A stretch of DNA of 44,382 nucleotides from a virus. The notes under the pieces are model-generated. The model was not told the origin of the DNA, searched no databases, and was given only the letters and a program-made list of their open reading frames with translations. Of the stretch, positions 1,633 to 44,382 are shown piece by piece (position 1 is the first letter of the stretch; the number at the start of each line of letters is the position of its first letter). The stretch is taken from IMG/VR virus record IMGVR_UViG_3300031993_000157; one strand, written 5' to 3'. A program made the translations under genes and the position numbers.

Positions 1633-1723
1633 TTTGGTATTTAAATTTTTTGTTGTATATTTGCATACGGAACGATGAACGTTCCGAACGACCCGGCGGG
1701 TTCCGGGAACAAACAACGATGAT
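1633..1723 (+). promoter_or_regulatory. Early promoter-leader module A: -33 TTTG (1633-1636), -7 TATATTTG (1656-1663), two-hairpin leader (1668-1686, 1692-1707)
   Basis: TTTG-N19-TAnnTTTG matches the Bacteroides-type promoter consensus. Homologous to modules at 9570, 41433 and 44000. Confidence 0.8.
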
Positions 1724-4881: not shown

Positions 4882-4912
4882 TTTGGATTTGAAATATAAT
4901 TGACTATCTTTG
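4882..4912 (+). promoter_or_regulatory. Bacteroidota-type promoter: TTTG (4882-4885) N19 TATCTTTG (4905-4912)
   Basis: Exact consensus spacing; lies in an intergenic gap upstream of CDS 5016. Confidence 0.6.
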
Positions 4913-5015
4913 TGGCAACAATCGTGTGTGGCCGCGCACGTAACGGAAATTTAATGCCCTGTAAAGTAAGCCAACGGCGGCCACCGTTGACCGAAATACG
5001 GGGCAAACTTTTTTT

Positions 5016-8730: not shown

Positions 8731-8940
8731 ATGAGCAAAAAGCGAAACGGCGTCCGGTACAGTCTTAAAAAAGCGAATGAAACAAAGCGAGAATCCGCCG
8801 GGTTGCTTTGGAACCGGGACAAGATGAAGAACCGGCGCGGATATGTAATTAACCCGTTCGCAAACGGATATAAGAATATGTCCGTACAAGAATTTGTAAA
8901 TAAGAACACGTCCGAAAAATACAGGCGGTTAAAAAAATGA
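8731..8940 (+). CDS. Hypothetical basic protein (69 aa)
   Basis: ORF track; starts 1 nt after the previous stop. Confidence 0.6.
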   Translation: MSKKRNGVRYSLKKANETKRESAGLLWNRDKMKNRRGYVINPFANGYKNMSVQEFVNKNTSEKYRRLKK

Positions 8941-9569: not shown

Positions 9570-9664
9570 TTTGGAAATTAAATTTTTTGTTGTACCTTTG
9601 TATCGGGTTAAGGAAATAACCCAACCGACCGGGCGGGTTCCGCGAAGCAAAAAAACAATGAGTT
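9570..9664 (+). promoter_or_regulatory. Early promoter-leader module B: TTTG (9570-9573) N19 TACCTTTG (9593-9600), hairpins 9605-9622 and about 9629-9644
   Basis: Near-identical to modules C and D across aaattttttgttgtacctttgtatcgggtt. Hairpin 1 is GGGTTA-aggaaa-TAACCC. Confidence 0.8.
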
Positions 9665-9826
9665 ATGAAAAAGTACATTGCAAATTACACCGACAAAAAA
9701 TCCGGTTCATCGTGGGATTTGTTTATCAATGCAGACAATAGGAGAGAAGCGGAGAAAGAAGCGCGATGCGCAACGCGCGGGCTGATGGCCGGATGCAAAT
9801 TTGAATCAATCCATTTAGATAGATAA
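9665..9826 (+). CDS. Possible small protein (53 aa) between leader B and tRNA-Gln
   Basis: Hand translation MKKYIANYTDKKSGSSWDLFINADNRREAEKEARCATRGLMAGCKFESIHLDR. An alternative ATG at 9659 gives only 27 aa. Confidence 0.4.
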   Translation: MKKYIANYTDKKSGSSWDLFINADNRREAEKEARCATRGLMAGCKFESIHLDR

Positions 9827-9833
9827 CAACAAT

Positions 9834-9905
9834 TGCCCCGTGGTGCAACGGCTAACACATTGGATTTTGGTTCCGACGATGCACGTTCGATTCGTGCCGG
9901 GGCAA
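9834..9905 (+). tRNA. tRNA-Gln: tRNA-Gln, anticodon UUG
   Basis: Hand-folded cloverleaf. Acceptor TGCCCCG/CGGGGCA (U1-A72). Anticodon stem TTGGA/TCCGA with loop ttTTGgt. T arm GCACG-ttcgatt-CGTGC. Confidence 0.85.
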
Positions 9906-9992
9906 CAAAAGCGGTCATCATCCGCGAATAAATATTGAACGTTTTTTACTTTACGGGGCCGGAACGTTGTGAAACGTGAAAGGCCCAAACAA

Positions 9993-10041
9993 ACCCCCGT
10001 GGCGCAAAAGTGGGCGCGGCGGTTCGATTCCGGGCGGGGGT
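9993..10041 (+). other. tRNA-like minihelix / tRNA remnant (49 nt): acceptor-like ACCCCCG/CGGGGGT, GGTTCGATTCC T-loop, single internal 4-bp arm, no anticodon arm
   Basis: Read from sequence; the T-stem pairs only 3 of 5 bp; abuts the HNH start codon. Confidence 0.35.
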
Positions 10042-10046
10042 TCAAT

Positions 10047-10520
10047 ATGAACAGAAAGCACAAAAATACAGACGCGGAAATTATTGAAGCGGCGAAGCAA
10101 TCAAAAAGCATTGCGGAAATGTTGCGCCGTCTTGGACGTTCGCGGTTTGGCAATTCATATAAGATATTGCGTTGCCATATTGAACGTTTGAATATTGACA
10201 CGTCGCATTTTACCGGAAGCGTGTGGAACAAAGGAAAGCCCGGTAAAAGGATTCCGCGAATTAACGATGAATTGGTTTTTGTGAAAGATTCAAAATATAC
10301 CTGTTCGAACCATCTTCGTAACCGGATTTTGAACAACGGATTGCGTGAAAGGAAATGCGAAATTTGCGGTAATACTGAATGGAACGGTAAACCAATTCCG
10401 TTACAGGTACACCACAAAAACGGGATACACAACGACAATAGATTGGAAAATTTACAGATTCTTTGCCCGAATTGTCACGCGCAAACGGACACATTCGCGG
10501 GAAAGAACACGAACAAATAA
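10047..10520 (+). CDS. HNH homing endonuclease (157 aa)
   Basis: CEICG...LQVHHKNGIHNDNRLENLQILCPNCH is a canonical HNH/zinc motif. ORF 9969..10520 trimmed to its first ATG. Wedged between tRNA genes. Confidence 0.85.
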   Translation: MNRKHKNTDAEIIEAAKQSKSIAEMLRRLGRSRFGNSYKILRCHIERLNIDTSHFTGSVWNKGKPGKRIPRINDELVFVKDSKYTCSNHLRNRILNNGLRERKCEICGNTEWNGKPIPLQVHHKNGIHNDNRLENLQILCPNCHAQTDTFAGKNTNK

Positions 10521-10522
10521 AT

Positions 10523-10606
10523 GGCCATTTGGTGGAAATAGGCAGACACGCAAAACTCAAAATTTTGTACCTTAACGGTGTGCCGGTTCGATTCCGGCAA
10601 TGGCCA
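10523..10606 (+). tRNA. tRNA-Leu: tRNA-Leu, anticodon CAA (type II, long variable arm)
   Basis: Acceptor GGCCATT/AATGGCC with A73. Anticodon stem CAAAA/TTTTG with loop ctCAAaa. Variable arm ACC-ttaa-GGT. T arm GCCGG-ttcgatt-CCGGC. Confidence 0.85.
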
Positions 10607-10634
10607 CAACCGACCGGGCGGATTCCCGGGAAAG
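10607..10634 (+). promoter_or_regulatory. Fifth copy of leader hairpin 2 (CCGGG-cggatt-CCCGG, 10614-10629) directly after tRNA-Leu and upstream of CDS 10659
   Basis: caaccgaccgggcggattcccgggaaag versus module B ccaaccgaccgggcgggttccgcgaag. Confidence 0.6.
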
Positions 10635-14430: not shown

Positions 14431-14628
14431 ATGGCAAAACAGAAAACAATTACATTGCACACCGACCCGGATTTTGTTGTGTTGTACACGAAGAAATGGG
14501 CGGTAGAAATCAAAAAGTCCCATTCAAAGGCGGAAGCCGCGATTGCGAAAGACATTTTGACATTGGTTGAACTTGGGCGTACCTGTTTGGTCCCCCAAAA
14601 GGCGGACCCGGCCGAACCGGGAAAATAA
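14431..14628 (+). CDS. Hypothetical protein (65 aa)
   Basis: Internal ATG of ORF 14347..14628, 1 nt after the stop at 14429. Confidence 0.55.
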   Translation: MAKQKTITLHTDPDFVVLYTKKWAVEIKKSHSKAEAAIAKDILTLVELGRTCLVPQKADPAEPGK

Positions 14629-14639
14629 AGTAAAGCGAT

Positions 14640-15116
14640 ATGGAAAAGACCTTTGAATTAAAGACGTTCAAACTTGAAATGTTTGGCGTGGATTGCAAGT
14701 ACAGACTTTGCGAAACCTACGACGACGGAACGACGACCGAAAACGAATACCACGTCAAGGTATCGCGGCCGATTCACCCCGATTTGGAAGCGTTGTTTAC
14801 GCGGGAATTGACCGACATTGTTTGCGACGTTTTCGACAACACGGAATTTTCGGCGCAACGCGAACTTGGGCGTTCGCCCATTACGCCAACCGGCGTAACG
14901 TTTGCCGGGAAAAAAGACAATATCGGCATTTCCATTCTCGGGAATATCGAAACGAAATTTGGTCGCGTAACGTTCAAGACGCCGCGTATCAAGTACAAGA
15001 CGAGCGAAAGCAACGCGGCCGTAAAAATGACCGTGTGGGCCGACAAAATCGTTAACGAAGCGTACGCCTATTTGTTTGAGAACAAGACGGCGGAAATGGA
15101 GGTATTCGGCGAATAA
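14640..15116 (+). CDS. Hypothetical protein (158 aa)
   Basis: ORF track; start context taaagcgatATG is related to the 950/2455 block. Confidence 0.75.
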   Translation: MEKTFELKTFKLEMFGVDCKYRLCETYDDGTTTENEYHVKVSRPIHPDLEALFTRELTDIVCDVFDNTEFSAQRELGRSPITPTGVTFAGKKDNIGISILGNIETKFGRVTFKTPRIKYKTSESNAAVKMTVWADKIVNEAYAYLFENKTAEMEVFGE

Positions 15117-15979: not shown

Positions 15980-16097
15980 TACGTTGTCCCCGATTCTGTA
16001 TTTCCAAAAGTCCAAGGGCGCGACACAAAAGGAATACGATTCAGTCGTTAATTTCATAAAGCAACAATTGGAATCAAACTTGAAAAAAGATGAATAA
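15906..16097 (+). CDS. Hypothetical protein (63 aa)
   Basis: Internal ATG (MEIVLVRNG) of ORF 15804..16097; overlaps the ssb start by 8 nt. Confidence 0.5.
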   Translation: MEIVLVRNGITGICKQPAIMKKDGNTLSPILYFQKSKGATQKEYDSVVNFIKQQLESNLKKDE

Positions 16098-16500
16098 AGT
16101 AATTTTGACCGGTAATGTGGGAAAGGACCCCGAAATTACCAATTTCGAAAACGGCGGCAAGGTCGCACAATTCACGTTGGCCACGACCGAACGCGGATAT
16201 AAGACCAAGGACGGAAAAGAAATACCCGATTCCACGGATTGGCACAATATCGTTGTCAGGAAATCCGGATTGGCGGGCGTGTGCGAAGATTTCGTCAAAA
16301 AGGGAACCCGCCTTAATATCGTCGGCAAAATCAAGACCCGTTCATACCAAGACAACGCCGGACAAACTCGGTACGTTACCGAAATCCACGTTGACGAAAT
16401 GGAATTAGCGGGCGGCCCTAAACACGAATCCGCACCGGCCCCGGCACCTGAATATCAACCCGGCGCATATACCGGCCCCGACATTCCCGAAAACATTTGA
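16090..16500 (+). CDS. ssb: Single-stranded DNA-binding protein (136 aa)
   Basis: OB-fold SSB pattern MNKVILTGNVGKDPE..TDWHNIVV..GTRLNIVGKIKTRSYQD..YVTEIHVDEM, with a Pro/Ala-rich tail ending in DIPENI. Confidence 0.92.
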   Translation: MNKVILTGNVGKDPEITNFENGGKVAQFTLATTERGYKTKDGKEIPDSTDWHNIVVRKSGLAGVCEDFVKKGTRLNIVGKIKTRSYQDNAGQTRYVTEIHVDEMELAGGPKHESAPAPAPEYQPGAYTGPDIPENI

Positions 16501-18235: not shown

Positions 18236-18288
18236 TGTTTCGCCCGGGTGGTGTTGACGGCCGTCCGGGCTATTTGTAGAAATTTCAC

Positions 18289-18296
18289 TATCTTTG
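18289..18296 (+). promoter_or_regulatory. -7 box TATCTTTG upstream of the packaging/late operon (no canonical -33 at N19)
   Basis: cacTATCTTTGc is also present at 41284. Preceded by hairpin GCCCGG...CCGGGC at 18242-18270. Confidence 0.4.
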
Positions 18297-18314
18297 CAAA
18301 AAATACATTGAGTT

Positions 18315-26188: not shown

Positions 26189-26216
26189 GCACATCCGAAA
26201 CAAAACCTAACTTTCG

Positions 26217-26254
26217 CGGGGACGGGTCAACAACCCCGTCCCCGTTTTTCTTTT
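26217..26254 (+). terminator. Strong terminator CGGGGACGGG-tcaacaac-CCCGTCCCCG + TTTTTCTTTT
   Basis: 10-bp GC stem and a T tract. Confidence 0.85.
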
Positions 26255-39717: not shown

Positions 39718-40265
39718 AAAAAGAAGATATTGACGCAATCGTAATCCATTGTTCCGCGACGCCCGAGGGAAAGGATATAAAGGCCGCCGATATTGAGAGG
39801 GAACACAAAAAGCGTGGATTTAAATGTATCGGTTACAATTACGTAATTGATTTGGACGGTACGGTTGAGGTCGGCCGCCCGTTGACGATGGACGGTGCGC
39901 ATTGCAACACGGCCGGAACGTCCGGGAAATCGTACAACAAACATTCCATTGGCATTTGTTACGTCGGCGGCCTTGAAGCAACGACGAACAGTAAAGGCGA
40001 AATCGTGGCCAAGACGGACAAACGGGGCAACCCGATTGCCAAGGACACGCGGACGGATGCGCAAAAGTTGGCAATGGCCGCGTTGATATATGACGAACTG
40101 TTGTCGGAATACCCGGGTATCGTTGACATTTTGGGACACCGGGACGCGTCGCCGGATAAGAACGGGGACGGCGAAATAACGAAAACCGAGTGGATAAAGG
40201 AATGCCCGTGTTTCAATGCCCGTTCGGAATTTCCGATTGCCGTTTGTACGGCGACAAAAAAATAA
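39714..40265 (+). CDS. N-acetylmuramoyl-L-alanine amidase (endolysin, Amidase_2/PGRP type, 183 aa)
   Basis: IVIHCSATPEG, GYNYVIDLDG, HSIGICYVGG and GHRD...ECPCF motifs. Confidence 0.9.
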   Translation: MKKEDIDAIVIHCSATPEGKDIKAADIEREHKKRGFKCIGYNYVIDLDGTVEVGRPLTMDGAHCNTAGTSGKSYNKHSIGICYVGGLEATTNSKGEIVAKTDKRGNPIAKDTRTDAQKLAMAALIYDELLSEYPGIVDILGHRDASPDKNGDGEITKTEWIKECPCFNARSEFPIAVCTATKK

Positions 40266-40303
40266 TAACTTTGTAACCATAACCCATTAACATTATTTGC
40301 CTT

Positions 40304-41432: not shown

Positions 41433-41521
41433 TTTGGAGATTAAAATTTTTGTTGTACCTTTGTATCGGGTTCAAGAAAGAACACCACGGCACGGGCCGG
41501 TTCCCGGTAAAGAATAAAGCA
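41433..41521 (+). promoter_or_regulatory. Early promoter-leader module C: TTTG (41433-41436) N19 TACCTTTG (41456-41463), hairpins 41468-41486 and 41493-41506
   Basis: Consensus promoter plus a two-hairpin leader; homologous to A, B and D. Confidence 0.8.
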
Positions 41522-41848
41522 ATGGCAAATTACTTTCAAGATTTCAACATTTCCGAGATGGCAAACGCAATCGGAATGGTCCCCGGCGAAAAAAGAGAAT
41601 ACGAAATTAACGTTATCGGTTCCAATTATTCCGCACACAACGATTCGTACGTTGAATTTCACGTTGAGAAAATCCGCATAACGGAAGCCGAAAACGGACA
41701 TACCACATTAAAGGTTTGGGGACGTTGGTTTTATACTGATATGGCCGAACACGTGAACGAATGGTACAGAAAAAACACCGTTCAAACCCAATGGTGGGGA
41801 TTGCGCCCGGACACGTTACGCAAGATTCAATCTTTAATTTCCAAGTAA
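41522..41848 (+). CDS. Hypothetical early protein (108 aa)
   Basis: Internal ATG (MANYFQDF) of ORF 41450..41848, 15 nt after leader hairpin 2. Confidence 0.7.
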   Translation: MANYFQDFNISEMANAIGMVPGEKREYEINVIGSNYSAHNDSYVEFHVEKIRITEAENGHTTLKVWGRWFYTDMAEHVNEWYRKNTVQTQWWGLRPDTLRKIQSLISK

Positions 41849-41858
41849 GTAAAAACCC

Positions 41859-41878
41859 GGCCCCGGGCAACCGGGGCC
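41859..41878 (+). other. GC-rich stem-loop GGCCCCGG-gcaa-CCGGGGCC (GNRA tetraloop); no U-tract
   Basis: Homolog of 26..45 with a compensatory paired change and the same flanks (..aaaatccca..). Confidence 0.6.
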
Positions 41879-41893
41879 AAAAATCCCAAAGAT

Positions 41894-42079
41894 ATGGAAA
41901 TTGCAATTGTATTATTGGCCTTTTCATTGGTCGGTTTCGTGGCCCTGTTTATGGGATACGTATTTGCCGCGATTCTTGCGGACAACCCGAAAAAGCCGTT
42001 TTCGGAATCGTTCGATTACACGTACAACCCGGAATTGATGGAGGACGGGACCGCGTATGAGAATACGCGCGGGTGGTAG
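41894..42079 (+). CDS. Small membrane protein (61 aa, one TM)
   Basis: ORF track; IAIVLLAFSLVGFVALFMGYVFAAIL. Confidence 0.6.
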   Translation: MEIAIVLLAFSLVGFVALFMGYVFAAILADNPKKPFSESFDYTYNPELMEDGTAYENTRGW

Positions 42080-42111
42080 ATTTGTCAAACTAATATTAAC
42101 ACGATACAGAA

Positions 42112-42348
42112 ATGGGAAGATTAAACGGTGTTACGTTGGCGTTGCTTACTGCAATGGCAATGGCGGAAAACGAACAATTTATGCGTGGCGGGCGACGGGT
42201 TGTCGTTGTTCCGGAAAGCGAGAACGAAAGGGAAAGAAAACGCCGCATTGAAGCGGAAACAATCGCAAAAGCGAAAGCAAAGCGGGCGAGGAAAGCGGAA
42301 AAATACCGGGCGACACACCCGGAAGATGCAAAAAACAAAAACAATTAG
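42112..42348 (+). CDS. Hypothetical highly charged protein (78 aa)
   Basis: ORF track; hydrophobic N-terminus followed by a Lys/Arg/Glu-rich helix. Confidence 0.55.
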   Translation: MGRLNGVTLALLTAMAMAENEQFMRGGRRVVVVPESENERERKRRIEAETIAKAKAKRARKAEKYRATHPEDAKNKNN

Positions 42349-42350
42349 GT

Positions 42351-42584
42351 ATGAATGCTATTTTTGTTGAACGCGCAATGACTATTGCGCTGGTTGCCGT
42401 GGCAATCGAACTTTTGGTATTGGGGTATCGTTTCGTTTGTTTCAGGCGAGAGAAATACCCGTATTCGTTCGCTGAATACGCGTCAATTCACGCGTCCCGC
42501 GTTGACGGCGCGTTGATTGGCGTTGCGCTTGTTATTGTAATTTCCGTTCTTTTTGTTTGGGTGTTCTCTCAATTAGATGCGTAA
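42351..42584 (+). CDS. Small membrane protein (77 aa, two TM)
   Basis: ORF track; MTIALVAVAIELLVLGY and LIGVALVIVISVLFVWVF. Confidence 0.6.
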   Translation: MNAIFVERAMTIALVAVAIELLVLGYRFVCFRREKYPYSFAEYASIHASRVDGALIGVALVIVISVLFVWVFSQLDA

Positions 42585-42586
42585 TT

Positions 42587-42802
42587 ATGAAACAGATTAA
42601 CACGATTGAACGCGTAATTTGCCGTTATGGCCGATATTATGCGACATTGCCGGAAGAAACGTGGAAGATGTTTGCCGATGGCGAACAGGTCCAAGTGATA
42701 GTCAAGAAATTGCCGACGGCCCGCCAACGGCAAATTTGCCGGGACGTGTTAATGGCAATATTGGGCCTATTGACGGCGTTGTTGGTCGCAATACTCTGGT
42801 AA
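42587..42802 (+). CDS. Small protein with C-terminal TM anchor (71 aa)
   Basis: Internal ATG (MKQINTIERV) of ORF 42557..42802; VLMAILGLLTALLVAILW. Confidence 0.55.
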   Translation: MKQINTIERVICRYGRYYATLPEETWKMFADGEQVQVIVKKLPTARQRQICRDVLMAILGLLTALLVAILW

Positions 42803-42803
42803 T

Positions 42804-43034
42804 ATGGGAATGCCGGAAAGATTATTTATTGCCGAATTTATGGTTTCCCCGGGTATGTTGGAACCGGCTGATTTCCCGCCGCAAAATCCGGAAACGGAAT
42901 ATATTAACGTAAATTGTGTTATGGATTTCGTTAATACCGTGCGCCGGTATGTCAACCCCAAAAAGGGCGACGCGTTTTGCTCGCGTTCCGAACTGTTGGG
43001 GAAACTGAATGAACTAACAAAATTGATTGAGTAA
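42804..43034 (+). CDS. Hypothetical protein (76 aa)
   Basis: ORF track. Confidence 0.6.
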   Translation: MGMPERLFIAEFMVSPGMLEPADFPPQNPETEYINVNCVMDFVNTVRRYVNPKKGDAFCSRSELLGKLNELTKLIE

Positions 43035-43252
43035 TGGCACGGGAAATCGCAAAAAGAAAACCCGACGGAACGTATAGGCTTTGCCCGTACCGGTATAAAA
43101 GGGTGGGTCCGTTTGTGAACGGCGTTCCGCTTGTTGGTAGTGACCCTTGTATGACTTGCCCGTATAATACGGGGCGTTACGCAAGTTACAATCCAATTGT
43201 AATTCAATGCGAATACGAAGAAAAGCATAAAAACGATGGCAAAGAAAAGTAA
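43034..43252 (+). CDS. Small Cys-rich protein (72 aa)
   Basis: ORF track; CPYRY...CMTCPYN...C pattern. Confidence 0.6.
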   Translation: MAREIAKRKPDGTYRLCPYRYKRVGPFVNGVPLVGSDPCMTCPYNTGRYASYNPIVIQCEYEEKHKNDGKEK

Positions 43253-43535
43253 TGTTCGAACCCGGCGTATGCAATACGATGATTTTTTGCATACGGCGCA
43301 CCAAACGAACTGCAACGCCCTTGCGTTCGTTGGAATGGAGTTTTGCAAGCGTGAACGGCAACACCAATTCCATTACGCGTTGTTGGCCCACGCGCAAGAT
43401 AAATACCTGTTTTACGATGGGATGGAAACCCGGGCAATCGTGGCGTGTAAAAAGGAACACGCGGACGAAATACGGAGTATTGCAAATGGATTAGATGGGC
43501 GCGAAATCCCGGTTCATCTTGACGAAAAAATTTGA
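43236..43535 (+). CDS. Hypothetical protein (99 aa)
   Basis: ORF track; 17-nt overlap with the previous gene. Confidence 0.6.
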   Translation: MAKKSNVRTRRMQYDDFLHTAHQTNCNALAFVGMEFCKRERQHQFHYALLAHAQDKYLFYDGMETRAIVACKKEHADEIRSIANGLDGREIPVHLDEKI

Positions 43536-43539
43536 CAAC

Positions 43540-43647
43540 TCCCGGCGTGGTGTAATTGGTTACAACGTTCGGCCCGTTTTAACAAAATTCAGTGGTTGCA
43601 AGTGAAACGCGGGCGCGAAAGATGCGGTCCGAATCCGCCGCCGGGAA
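43540..43647 (+). ncRNA. tRNA-like element (about 108 nt) with oversized anticodon-position arm
   Basis: Acceptor TCCCGGC/GCCGGGA (extendable to 8 bp). D arm with loop taattGGtta. T arm GCGG-tccgaat-CCGC. The central arm TTCG-GCCCG...CGGGC-g-CGAA encloses 33 nt. Confidence 0.35.
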
Positions 43648-43649
43648 CG

Positions 43650-43682
43650 AAAAACCGCGCCCCGGACGAATCCCGGGCGCGG
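43650..43682 (-). terminator. Terminator for the minus-strand gene: CCGCGCCCGGG-attcgt-CCGGGGCGCGG + TTTTT (minus-strand reading)
   Basis: Stem of 10 bp with one mismatch at 43655-43682. The T run lies only on the minus strand (plus-strand aaaaa at 43650-43654). Confidence 0.7.
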
Positions 43683-43999: not shown

Positions 44000-44088
44000 T
44001 TTGGTTTTTATGAAAATTGTTGTACCTTTGTATCGGGTTCAATAAGGAAACCAACGCACCGGGGCGGTTCCCGGTAAAGAAACAGACA
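44000..44088 (+). promoter_or_regulatory. Early promoter-leader module D: TTTG (44000-44003) N19 TACCTTTG (44023-44030), hairpins 44036-44052 and 44059-44074
   Basis: Consensus promoter plus a two-hairpin leader; closest to module C, including upstream tacaaaaagttttgg. Confidence 0.8.
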
Positions 44089-44268
44089 ATGAAACAGAAC
44101 ATCACAAAAAAAGGACTTGACGCCAACCTTAACGAAATCGCCGTTATTGTTAAATATGATTCTATGGGCGTTAATCAAGGAACATTCTACAAAGATATTG
44201 AGGGCGAACACGAAATGTCCGAAAGAATGGCCAATTTGCTTTTCGAAGAAAATGTTTGCATTCGATAA
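44089..44268 (+). CDS. Hypothetical early protein (59 aa); its last 13 nt are also bases 1-13 of the window
   Basis: Internal ATG (MKQNITKK) of ORF 44017..44268, 14 nt after leader hairpin 2. Confidence 0.6.
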   Translation: MKQNITKKGLDANLNEIAVIVKYDSMGVNQGTFYKDIEGEHEMSERMANLLFEENVCIR

Positions 44269-44382
44269 ATAATCAACCCCGGCCCGGGGCAACCCGGGCC
44301 ATAAATCCCAATAGAAACTAACTAAAAAATCAATCAATATGGCAAACGAAATCATCAAAGGTTACAAGGGCTTCGACAAAGA
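44256..44382. repeat. Terminal overlap, copy 2 (identical to 1-127); contains a duplicate of the hairpin at 26..45 and the first 44 nt of gene 84..905 (ATG at 44339)
   Basis: Base-by-base identity with the window start. Confidence 0.95.

Follow-up and report, generated by a model that had tools for sequence, protein, structure and literature searches.

Phage HK022 put RNA, which renders RNA polymerase resistant to termination in cis and needs no protein factor, is a two-stem structure of about 65–70 nucleotides (nt) without a pseudoknot; it requires both adjacent stems and is present in one copy per operon, ahead of terminators. The pseudoknot of phage T4 gene 32 is larger, serves a single gene and nucleates the binding of that gene's own product. 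In Escherichia coli, the tisB +42 mRNA, a single toxin message, has a sequestered ribosome-binding site with a standby site some 100 nt 5′ of it; a 5′ pseudoknot beside a single-stranded stretch is required there for binding of protein S1/30S and for translation (PMC7708055). Pseudoknots adjoining single-stranded RNA are known S1/30S standby determinants (PMC7708055). Here, we analysed the IMG/VR virus record IMGVR_UViG_3300031993_000157 (the window: the whole 44,382-nt stretch) and the leader RNA at 1633–1723, which the original prediction had proposed as a put-like two-hairpin anti-termination element. The conserved leader core is a predicted small pseudoknot just ahead of start codons, which suggests control of translation or mRNA fate rather than anti-termination.

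At the structural level, the part that stays constant across about 85 related phage loci is hairpin 2 of the leader plus the 5 nt on its 5′ side, seen in the alignment as A-C-S-S-N, CCGGG, SSGGTT, CCCGG. The spacer triplet is the reverse complement of loop bases 1–3 (CGG/CCG, CCG/CGG, CGC/GCG). From 5′ to 3′, the core consists of an A, the first strand of helix S1 (3 nt), loop L1 (1 nt, usually A), the G/C 5′ arm of helix S2 (5 nt), the second strand of S1 (S1′), loop L3 (GUU, AUU, UUU or AA) and the 3′ arm of S2. With its 20–22 nt, 3 base pairs (bp) in S1 and 5 bp in S2, this geometry would be that of a compact H-type pseudoknot in which S1 is interlaced with hairpin 2 (S2).

The window contains six copies, which scored 38.8, 37.7, 32.3, 23.5, 20.7 and 17.3 bits with a covariance model (CM) of the core; the next-best match scored 13.6.

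1688–1707, + strand: pseudoknot A, spacer ACG, L1 A, S2 CCCGG/CCGGG, loop CGGGTT; 37.7 bits; ATG at 1724, 16 nt 3′
9625–9644, + strand: pseudoknot B, knot pairs intact (CCG:CGG); 17.3 bits, lowest of the six; ATG at 9665, 20 nt 3′
10610–10629, + strand: pseudoknot E, CCG-A-CCGGG-CGG-ATT-CCCGG; 38.8 bits; passes the strict knot descriptor
14603–14621, + strand: pseudoknot F, CGG-A-CCCGG-CCG-AA-CCGGG, 5-nt loop; 20.7 bits; ATG at 14640, 18 nt 3′
41488–41507, + strand: pseudoknot C, CGG-CA-CGGG-CCG-GTT-CCCG; 23.5 bits; ATG at 41522, 14 nt 3′
44055–44074, + strand: pseudoknot D, CGC-A-CCGGG-GCG-GTT-CCCGG; 32.3 bits; passes the strict knot descriptor; ATG at 44089, 14 nt 3′

Five of these copies correspond to the four or five leaders first reported, including the hairpin 2 that follows tRNA-Leu; the sixth, at 14603–14621, had been missed. 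Copy A forms only two of the three pairs of the knot helix (A opposite G). Copy B had been described as deviant in hairpin 2, and its S2 is indeed degenerate (CCGGG/CCGCG), while copy C has an S2 of 4 bp, or 5 counting an A/G mismatch at its base. Copy E has neither promoter nor hairpin 1; it begins 3 nt past the tRNA (10523–10607) and precedes by 29 nt the ATG (10659) of an SMC/RecN-like ATPase gene. Copy F sits in the final codons of a small open reading frame (ORF), 14431–14628.

The evidence for the structure comes from relatives. A pattern scan of IMG/VR gave 35 matches, six of them true homologues, and the ATPase gene used as an anchor gave 80 related loci, in which a first CM built from ten leaders found 111 matches, all on the gene strand. 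In an alignment from a model blind to S1, the S1 helix was 98.5% paired, with one pair present as CG in 44 sequences and GC in 23 and zero mismatch; slid registers of the same alignment dropped to 19–56%. S2 was 98.2% paired there, with compensatory change at four of five pairs, and 0/500 shuffles matched the observed values, a control that takes no account of the kinship among the many related sequences aligned. In a second set of 85 distinct sequences, which shares some seeds picked for knot pairing, S1 was 99.2% paired (CG:62/AU:22, CG:62/GC:22, GC:81/CG:3). Both alignments together show compensatory change at all three S1 pairs and 98–99% pairing in S2.

The independent tests are the S1-blind alignment and a register test. 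For the latter, we took 206 GC hairpins that precede an A-rich tail and an ATG, picked without regard to the spacer: full 3/3 complementarity occurred at L1 = 1 in 105 of them, and in 0–7 at L1 = 0 or 2–7. An H-type pseudoknot has a hairpin loop that pairs with flanking sequence, and here covariation supports both helices, with pairing specific to one register. An S1-only hairpin is worth −0.7 to −3.4 kcal/mol against −8.5 to −9.5 kcal/mol for the S2 hairpin, too weak to compete, so selection on S1 points to simultaneous formation of the two helices. For single copies, the folding energies were unexceptional (z = −1.9, −0.1, −1.05, −0.84, +0.17), and the case for structure therefore rests on the comparison with relatives.

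Pairing is conserved and gene-strand-specific in related phage loci, and the claim of covarying stems in a functional RNA made in the original prediction holds for hairpin 1 (six of six pairs compensatory) as for hairpin 2. Judged from sequence comparison, a functional, strand-specific RNA that recurs in related phages with covarying pairs is supported. We rejected a DNA-level protein site or palindrome as the primary explanation: the triplets flank a non-palindromic stem arm, G-U pairs are present and all copies are on the sense strand. Nor does the element look like a terminator, given that an A-rich tail follows the hairpin and that a + strand terminator scan called 0/6 copies.

The second CM, which models the core, returned 214 matches in 89 sources at E ≤ 0.05. 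A single one of them is not on the gene strand (L027, 1559–1600, +, E 0.029), and it overlaps a true copy on the other strand. Class I copies have the loop SSG + GUU or AUU. Class II copies, present in Alistipes phage AS73P1, Parabacteroides phage PDS1 and Elizabethkingia phage TCUEAP2, have the spacer ACG and the loop CGU + UUU, with an A-U pair in place of the otherwise constant C-G. Class III copies have a 5-nt loop (SSG + AA) and include window copy F; their relatives, loosely syntenic at about 3–4 kb past the ATPase start, covary independently (CCG:CGG, CCT:AGG), with S2 as GCCGG/CCGGC or TCCGG/CCGGA.

Complete genomes carry the element several times on the gene strand: six copies in the window and 4–7 each in AS73P1, PDS1 and TCUEAP2, those of PDS1 and TCUEAP2 at positions outside the annotated structural modules. 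Many copies lack both promoter and hairpin 1 and are located after an upstream stop codon or a tRNA; in at least four independent contexts (window copy E, L045:9958, L046:6533/L047:9363 and L037:1595), they lie 3–12 nt past the tRNA 3′ end. The element is specific to one clade of Bacteroidota phages. Class I matches in IMG/VR are all on contigs of ≤48.8 kb, and the related phages B40-8 and Croceibacter P2559S have zero copies. When genome contigs were scanned with the class I pattern, 11 of the 15 low-GC loci among the matches listed carried the element in phage-like contexts, and the high-GC ones among them were chance matches. The element-bearing contigs that were checked in genome collections are about 45 kb long and phage-like, and had been binned into metagenome-assembled genomes.

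These copies match no Rfam family. Rfam 15 reported two tRNAs only for the whole window at gathering score, and at E ≤ 10 the class I and II copies gave unrelated sub-threshold matches, none overlapping the element. Our literature searches found no description of the motif, and blastn of one leader against cultured phages was set aside, being dominated by chance matches in Salmonella phages.

The position of the element relative to genes is also constrained. A long-ORF ATG follows within 60 nt in 127 of 133 distinct contexts, at a median of 18 nt from the knot (interquartile range 15–21), whether or not the copy has a promoter; between the upstream stop codon and the knot, by contrast, lie anywhere from 1 to 137 nt. 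The stretch between knot and ATG is typically 14–22 nt long and consists of 57% A and 8% G. The 14–17 nt first given for the window leaders fits copies A, C and D, and does not fit B, where 20 nt separate the hairpin from the gene's ATG and 14 nt from an earlier out-of-frame one, or E.

At the promoter-proximal copies, the leader has a second stem-loop, hairpin 1. The four modules had been predicted to share a Bacteroidota promoter with exact spacing and a two-hairpin leader, and both were found as described.

1633–1663, + strand: promoter A, −33 TTTG, 19-nt spacer, −7 box TATATTTG; sigma-A type of Bacteroidota, exact pattern match
1668–1686, + strand: hairpin 1 of copy A, CGGAACG-ATGAA-CGTTCCG, begins at the predicted +1; accessory 5′-terminal stem-loop
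9570–9600, + strand: promoter B, exact pattern match
9605–9622, + strand: hairpin 1 of copy B, GGGTTA-AGGAAA-TAACCC, begins at the predicted +1
41433–41463, + strand: promoter C, exact pattern match
41468–41486, + strand: hairpin 1 of copy C, GGGTTC-AAGAAA-GAAC(A)CC
44000–44030, + strand: promoter D, exact pattern match
44036–44052, + strand: hairpin 1 of copy D, weak, GGTT..AACC with internal mismatches

In the whole window, exact TTGTTGTANNTTTG occurs only four times, all on the + strand (1650, 9587, 41450, 44017), and TTTG-N19-TAnnTTTG matches exactly at 1633, 9570, 41433 and 44000. In its looser form, the pattern shows no overall enrichment and also matches 4882 and 40243. The AT-rich near-palindrome that was thought to overlap each −33 box, and to be a possible operator, did not survive: it is merely an A-tract followed by TTTTGG and varies among relatives. 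The sigma-A −7 box of Bacteroidota, TAnnTTTG, covers −12 to −5 (PMC9723704). With the box placed there, the predicted +1 of promoter A is 1668, and hairpin 1 begins exactly at the predicted +1 in each of the four modules of the window, which is why hairpin 1 is confined to promoter-proximal copies. The +1 of a transcript is a classic site for a 5′-terminal stabilising stem-loop.

In relatives, hairpin 1 is 90.6% paired, with both-sided changes at 6/6 pairs and 0/500 shuffles matching. It is variable and often missing among the aligned relatives, absent from all promoter-less copies and also missing at promoter-proximal ones such as PDS1 1912. Hairpin 1 is thus an optional, dispensable stem-loop. 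Further sigma-A-type promoter motifs (TAtcTTTG, TAacTTTG) with leaders that have no pseudoknot are found at 4882–5015, 18290–18314, 40243–40303 and 41285. The leader after the 4882 promoter, about 100 nt long and structured-looking by eye, precedes gene 5016, which is homologous to the DNA methyltransferase of B40-8.

Every plausible gene of the window is on the + strand. The two ends carry an exact 127-nt direct repeat (1–127 = 44256–44382), which indicates a genome of 44,255 bp that is either closed into a circle or terminally redundant. In the unit led by promoter D, the first gene (44089–44268) terminates within this repeat.

DNA-metabolism region, + strand: exonuclease 2455, Holliday-junction resolvase region, SMC/RecN-like ATPase 10659, polymerase-exonuclease 13560, SSB 16090
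Packaging, structural and lysis module, + strand: terS 18315, terL 19151, portal 21560, capsid 25076, tape measure 29946
Two small-gene blocks of unknown function, + strand: 41522–43535, and 44089 across the record end to 1465

All six copies are on the gene strand and fall within early or DNA-metabolism regions; the packaging/structural module has none. Those at 9625, 10610 and 14603 belong to one transcription unit with no promoter motif between them. By ranking of the ATPase, the nearest cultured relatives are Alistipes phage AS73P1, Elizabethkingia phage TCUEAP2 and the Parabacteroides phages PD491P1 and PDS1; the 451-amino-acid product of this anchor gene was also considered as a terminase, which we rejected in favour of the SMC/RecN-like ATPase.

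Some neighbouring features are recorded here. Between tRNA-Gln and tRNA-Leu (9834–10607) there is an HNH homing-endonuclease gene (9969–10520). This tRNA-HNH-tRNA block stands between promoter module B and the ATPase gene, with copy E at its 3′ edge, and looks like a cassette insertion beside a conserved knot sequence. At 84–905, a 273-amino-acid protein with an N-terminal DUF7666 domain contains about nine tandem 8-residue units ATNTG-x-x-S, where x-x is YQ, DC or NS (…ATNTGYQSAATNTGDCSAATNTGNSS…). A tRNA-like stretch at 43539–43650 has an 8-bp acceptor-like stem (TCCCGGCG...CGCCGGGA), a T-arm-like GCGG-TCCGAAT-CCGC and about 40 surplus nt in the middle, and a strong hairpin (43654–43682) comes after it. 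ARAGORN and Rfam made no call on this stretch, whose fold z-score reaches only −1.7. It may be a small RNA, or else a tRNA that is degenerate or interrupted.

As for function, the hosts provide the setting. Published accounts describe Bacteroidia without use of the Shine-Dalgarno (SD) sequence and dependent on A-rich leaders free of structure, with A favoured at −3, −6 and −11 to −15 and a modal 5′ untranslated region (UTR) of 23 nt (PMC7366714; PMC6847099, PMC9976891). The A-rich leader delimited by the knot is close to this UTR length and standby sites offer a precedent, and we therefore favour a modular initiation cassette. As in tisB, a 5′ pseudoknot stands beside a single-stranded region upstream of the start. 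We give a probability of roughly 0.4 that the knot is a translation-initiation or standby cassette marking independent starts of early and middle genes in SD-blind hosts. The stronger version, in which structure-based recruitment of ribosomes acts as an SD surrogate, driving de novo initiation both at internal cistrons and on early mRNAs, we consider doubtful.

In such a cassette, the knot would fold autonomously and insulate the A-rich initiation region from upstream sequence, leaving an unstructured, SD-free leader of 14–22 nt before the AUG. It would act as a standby or docking structure that aids loading of the host 30S subunit, with protein S1, a binder of pseudoknots beside single-stranded RNA, as the likeliest contact. 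Help with 30S loading would be relevant in hosts with ribosomes that ignore the SD, the anti-SD being kept sequestered. As a side benefit, a stable knot may also shield each cistron at its 5′ edge once a tRNA has been excised or the transcript otherwise processed, and hairpin 1, at the predicted +1, would be an extra 5′-terminal stabiliser on the primary transcripts of this sub-clade. Pairing of the element with the 3′ region of 16S rRNA was considered and dropped: it would reach at most 5–6 nt and be inconsistent across classes.

Several points weigh against the cassette. Binding of the ribosome or of protein S1 is something we purely infer; enhanced initiation and protection from decay are likewise putative effects. 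The highly expressed late genes (capsid, portal), other sigma-A-type promoters of the window (4882, 18290, 40243) and the relatives B40-8 and P2559S in their entirety do without the knot, so translation in these hosts does not require it. With its 3 bp, the S1 helix is of marginal stability and may depend on Mg2+ or a bound factor, and three of the four promoter-proximal window copies (A, B and C) are each slightly imperfect. Spacing to the ATG is suggestive and not decisive, as a packed genome puts any intergenic element just 5′ of the next initiation region. Finally, L3 and S2 are more conserved within classes than the structure needs, and a specific protein partner could be the reason.

Such a partner is central to an alternative that is possible, if unlikely: the knot would be the shared site of an early-mRNA regulon, at which a phage RNA-binding protein or nuclease shuts off or activates translation or decay of early and middle mRNAs, in the manner of T4 RegA/RegB or of the pseudoknot operator of T4 gene 32. 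Its restriction to early and DNA-metabolism genes, with a structural module free of knots, would suit a regulon, as would its restriction to one phage clade (class I contigs of ≤48.8 kb, B40-8 and P2559S without it) and the fact that S2 and L3 are more conserved within a class than hairpin 1. Upstream operators of some bacterial translational repressors block 30S access sterically, and a knot at −15 to −36 could do the same. The search for the partner, in contrast, was negative, although non-exhaustive. We compared presence and absence of the window proteins in four knot-bearing genomes (the window phage, AS73P1, PDS1 and TCUEAP2) against the two knot-less ones, and no protein was in all of the former and missing from both of the latter, save a MazG N-terminal piece, so that no specific candidate emerged. 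Among the early proteins scanned with Pfam and PHROG, no RNA-binding domain was found. The 158-amino-acid protein encoded after copy F (g14640) was tried as a candidate and discarded; its structure model, although confident (pLDDT 89), had no sequence or fold match in the PDB, and a homologue exists in knot-less B40-8. Moreover, the variation of L3 by class (GUU, UUU, AA) weakens the case for a single sequence-specific binder.

It is also improbable, though worth keeping in view, that the knot is a 5′ boundary barrier or processing landmark. In this case, it would block 5′-end-dependent decay, by a 5′–3′ exonuclease or a 5′-monophosphate-stimulated endonuclease, and keep intact the initiation region of cistrons released by tRNA excision or endonucleolytic cleavage. 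The four or more independent cases of a copy 3–12 nt past the 3′ end of a tRNA are what one would look for, and in transcripts from PDS1-type promoters no other structure comes before the knot. Its architecture is more conserved than its loop sequence, and the 14–22 nt of single-stranded leader that would remain fit the usual minimal Bacteroides 5′ UTR. Nevertheless, the barrier would be redundant where primary transcripts carry the 5′-terminal hairpin 1, as in this sub-clade, nothing indicates cleavage upstream of the internal copies, late polycistronic mRNAs do without a knot, and 5 + 3 bp are small for a mechanical block.

Anti-termination of the put or nut type, in which the nascent RNA, alone or with a factor, makes the polymerase read through terminators, has become a poor prospect. 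Each of the four consensus early promoters is directly followed by the element, which is a small, structured sense-strand RNA of a phage, and in units C and D the first genes have GC-rich hairpins behind them (26–45, 916–931, 41859–41878). Against this, copies occur several times per transcription unit and after tRNAs and stop codons, and their spacing is locked to the ATG and not to the promoter. A persistent modification of the polymerase would make the copies at 9625, 10610 and 14603, which share one unit, redundant. Hairpin 1, one half of the supposed two-stem element, is dispensable, inspection by eye showed no conserved block resembling boxA, and no arginine-rich protein like N was identified.

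The terminators expected by this explanation are also few. Among the hairpins cited as terminator-like, the one at 1481–1500 stands, being on the + strand with a T-run, and it is the only canonical + strand terminator of them; it ends unit D just upstream of promoter A. The hairpins at 26–45 and 41859–41878 have T-runs on the − strand only, and 916–931 was not called. Near the pseudoknot-led units, the only strong + strand terminators found are those at 1481 and 18242, at 3′ ends and just upstream of the next promoter, and + strand hairpins inside these units are weak. The put-like two-hairpin reading is consequently not upheld: hairpin 1 can be lost, the core is a pseudoknot, and the distance that is kept is to the ATG and not to a promoter or terminator. 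The alternative listed with it, a translational control element or factor binding site, fits the data better.

Strong + strand intrinsic terminators were located at 18242–18270, at the end of the DNA-metabolism region before the terS promoter, and at 26216–26245, just past the major capsid gene. A second repeated family consists of GC-rich GNRA-tetraloop hairpins at 26–45 (= 44281–44300), 916–931 and 41859–41878, with the sequences GGCCCGGG-GCAA-CCCGGGCC, GGCCGG-GTAA-CCGGCC and GGCCCCGG-GCAA-CCGGGGCC. Each lies about 10 nt past the stop codon of a gene of unit C or D. Because they have no + strand T-run, they are not canonical terminators, and they could be 3′ stabilisers or processing sites. 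The stretch 910–931 also satisfies a loose descriptor for pseudoknots and has an ATG 18 nt to its 3′ side.

A mini-riboswitch, whose marginal 3-bp helix would form on binding of a ligand or ion and tune early-gene translation to host state, resembles the element in the size and topology of the smallest pseudoknot riboswitches, in the thermodynamically marginal S1 helix and in the A-rich tail beside the start codon, and is very improbable given no Rfam riboswitch match even at E ≤ 10, the many unrelated genes that follow the element and a loop variation between classes that fits a conserved ligand pocket poorly.

The ribosomes of Bacteroidota are SD-blind, and how they are recruited by host and phage mRNAs is only partly understood. 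If the ribosome-recruitment reading is true, the knot would be a portable 20-nt part, a mini internal ribosome entry site or standby site, and a direct handle on start-site choice by SD-blind bacterial ribosomes. Whichever role applies (initiation enhancer, early-regulon operator or decay barrier), it would yield a compact part for engineering expression in gut Bacteroidales. More than 200 natural variants of this very small, covarying knot can guide mutagenesis, and cultured phage-host pairs exist for Parabacteroides PDS1, Alistipes AS73P1 and Elizabethkingia TCUEAP2. For phage annotation, it would be a new RNA family, one for which Rfam 15 has no entry.

Compared with known systems, the element shares with HK022 put (putL/putR) a structured RNA just past phage early promoters, on the sense transcript and in more than one copy per genome; put acts in cis, and the element would do so too. 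In contrast to put, its core is a 20–22 nt pseudoknot in which a second stem-loop is optional, and it is repeated within operons, after tRNAs and stop codons and near the ATG. Lambda nut is similar in having a 5-bp hairpin with a conserved loop on early transcripts, both promoter-proximal and after an upstream gene. Unlike the GNRA-like pentaloop of boxB, which stays unpaired and is bound by N, the loop here has 6 nt (5 in class III) and its bases 1–3 pair with the 5′ flank, and the 4–7 copies per genome are tied to start codons. Upstream of the knot, only A-C-S-S-N is conserved, and a boxA consensus search was not made. Small basic ORFs are present (e.g. 8731–8940, pI 10.7); the one scanned against Pfam had no family match.

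PeSL of T4-type phages are units of a terminator stem-loop and a promoter, conserved as DNA for recombination. Like them, the window has near-identical promoter and stem-loop modules repeated between early gene cassettes, which could, by analogy, promote cassette shuffling, copy E flanking the inserted tRNA-HNH-tRNA block. Unlike them, compensatory change in two helices marks selection on RNA structure, and many copies are promoter-less. The preQ1-I riboswitch, likewise an H-type pseudoknot (≤34 nt), has a 5-bp stem, and its A-rich 3′ tail directly precedes a start codon. There, it is the 3′ tail that pairs with the loop, and here the 5′ flank, with no Rfam match, no link to queuosine genes and multiple copies before unrelated genes.

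In T4, the RegA and RegB regulons place a short shared signal near many early starts for global post-transcriptional control, with sites that are unstructured sequence motifs, in contrast to the structured knot found here. Like the T4 gene 32 operator, which has an A/U-rich leader, the element is an H-type pseudoknot in a phage leader with an unstructured run to the AUG; it differs in that the SSB gene (16090–16500) has no upstream knot and that knots precede unrelated genes. The early-mRNA regulons of T4 have been reviewed (PMC3014915). The tisB standby pseudoknot (PMC7708055) is alike in its 5′ pseudoknot beside a single-stranded stretch, with the difference that here this stretch is itself the SD-less initiation region and that the module is repeated before many phage genes. 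The kind of element, a leader pseudoknot near a start site, is thus known; what is new is this family, its minimal size, its multi-copy use locked to start codons and its setting in SD-blind hosts.

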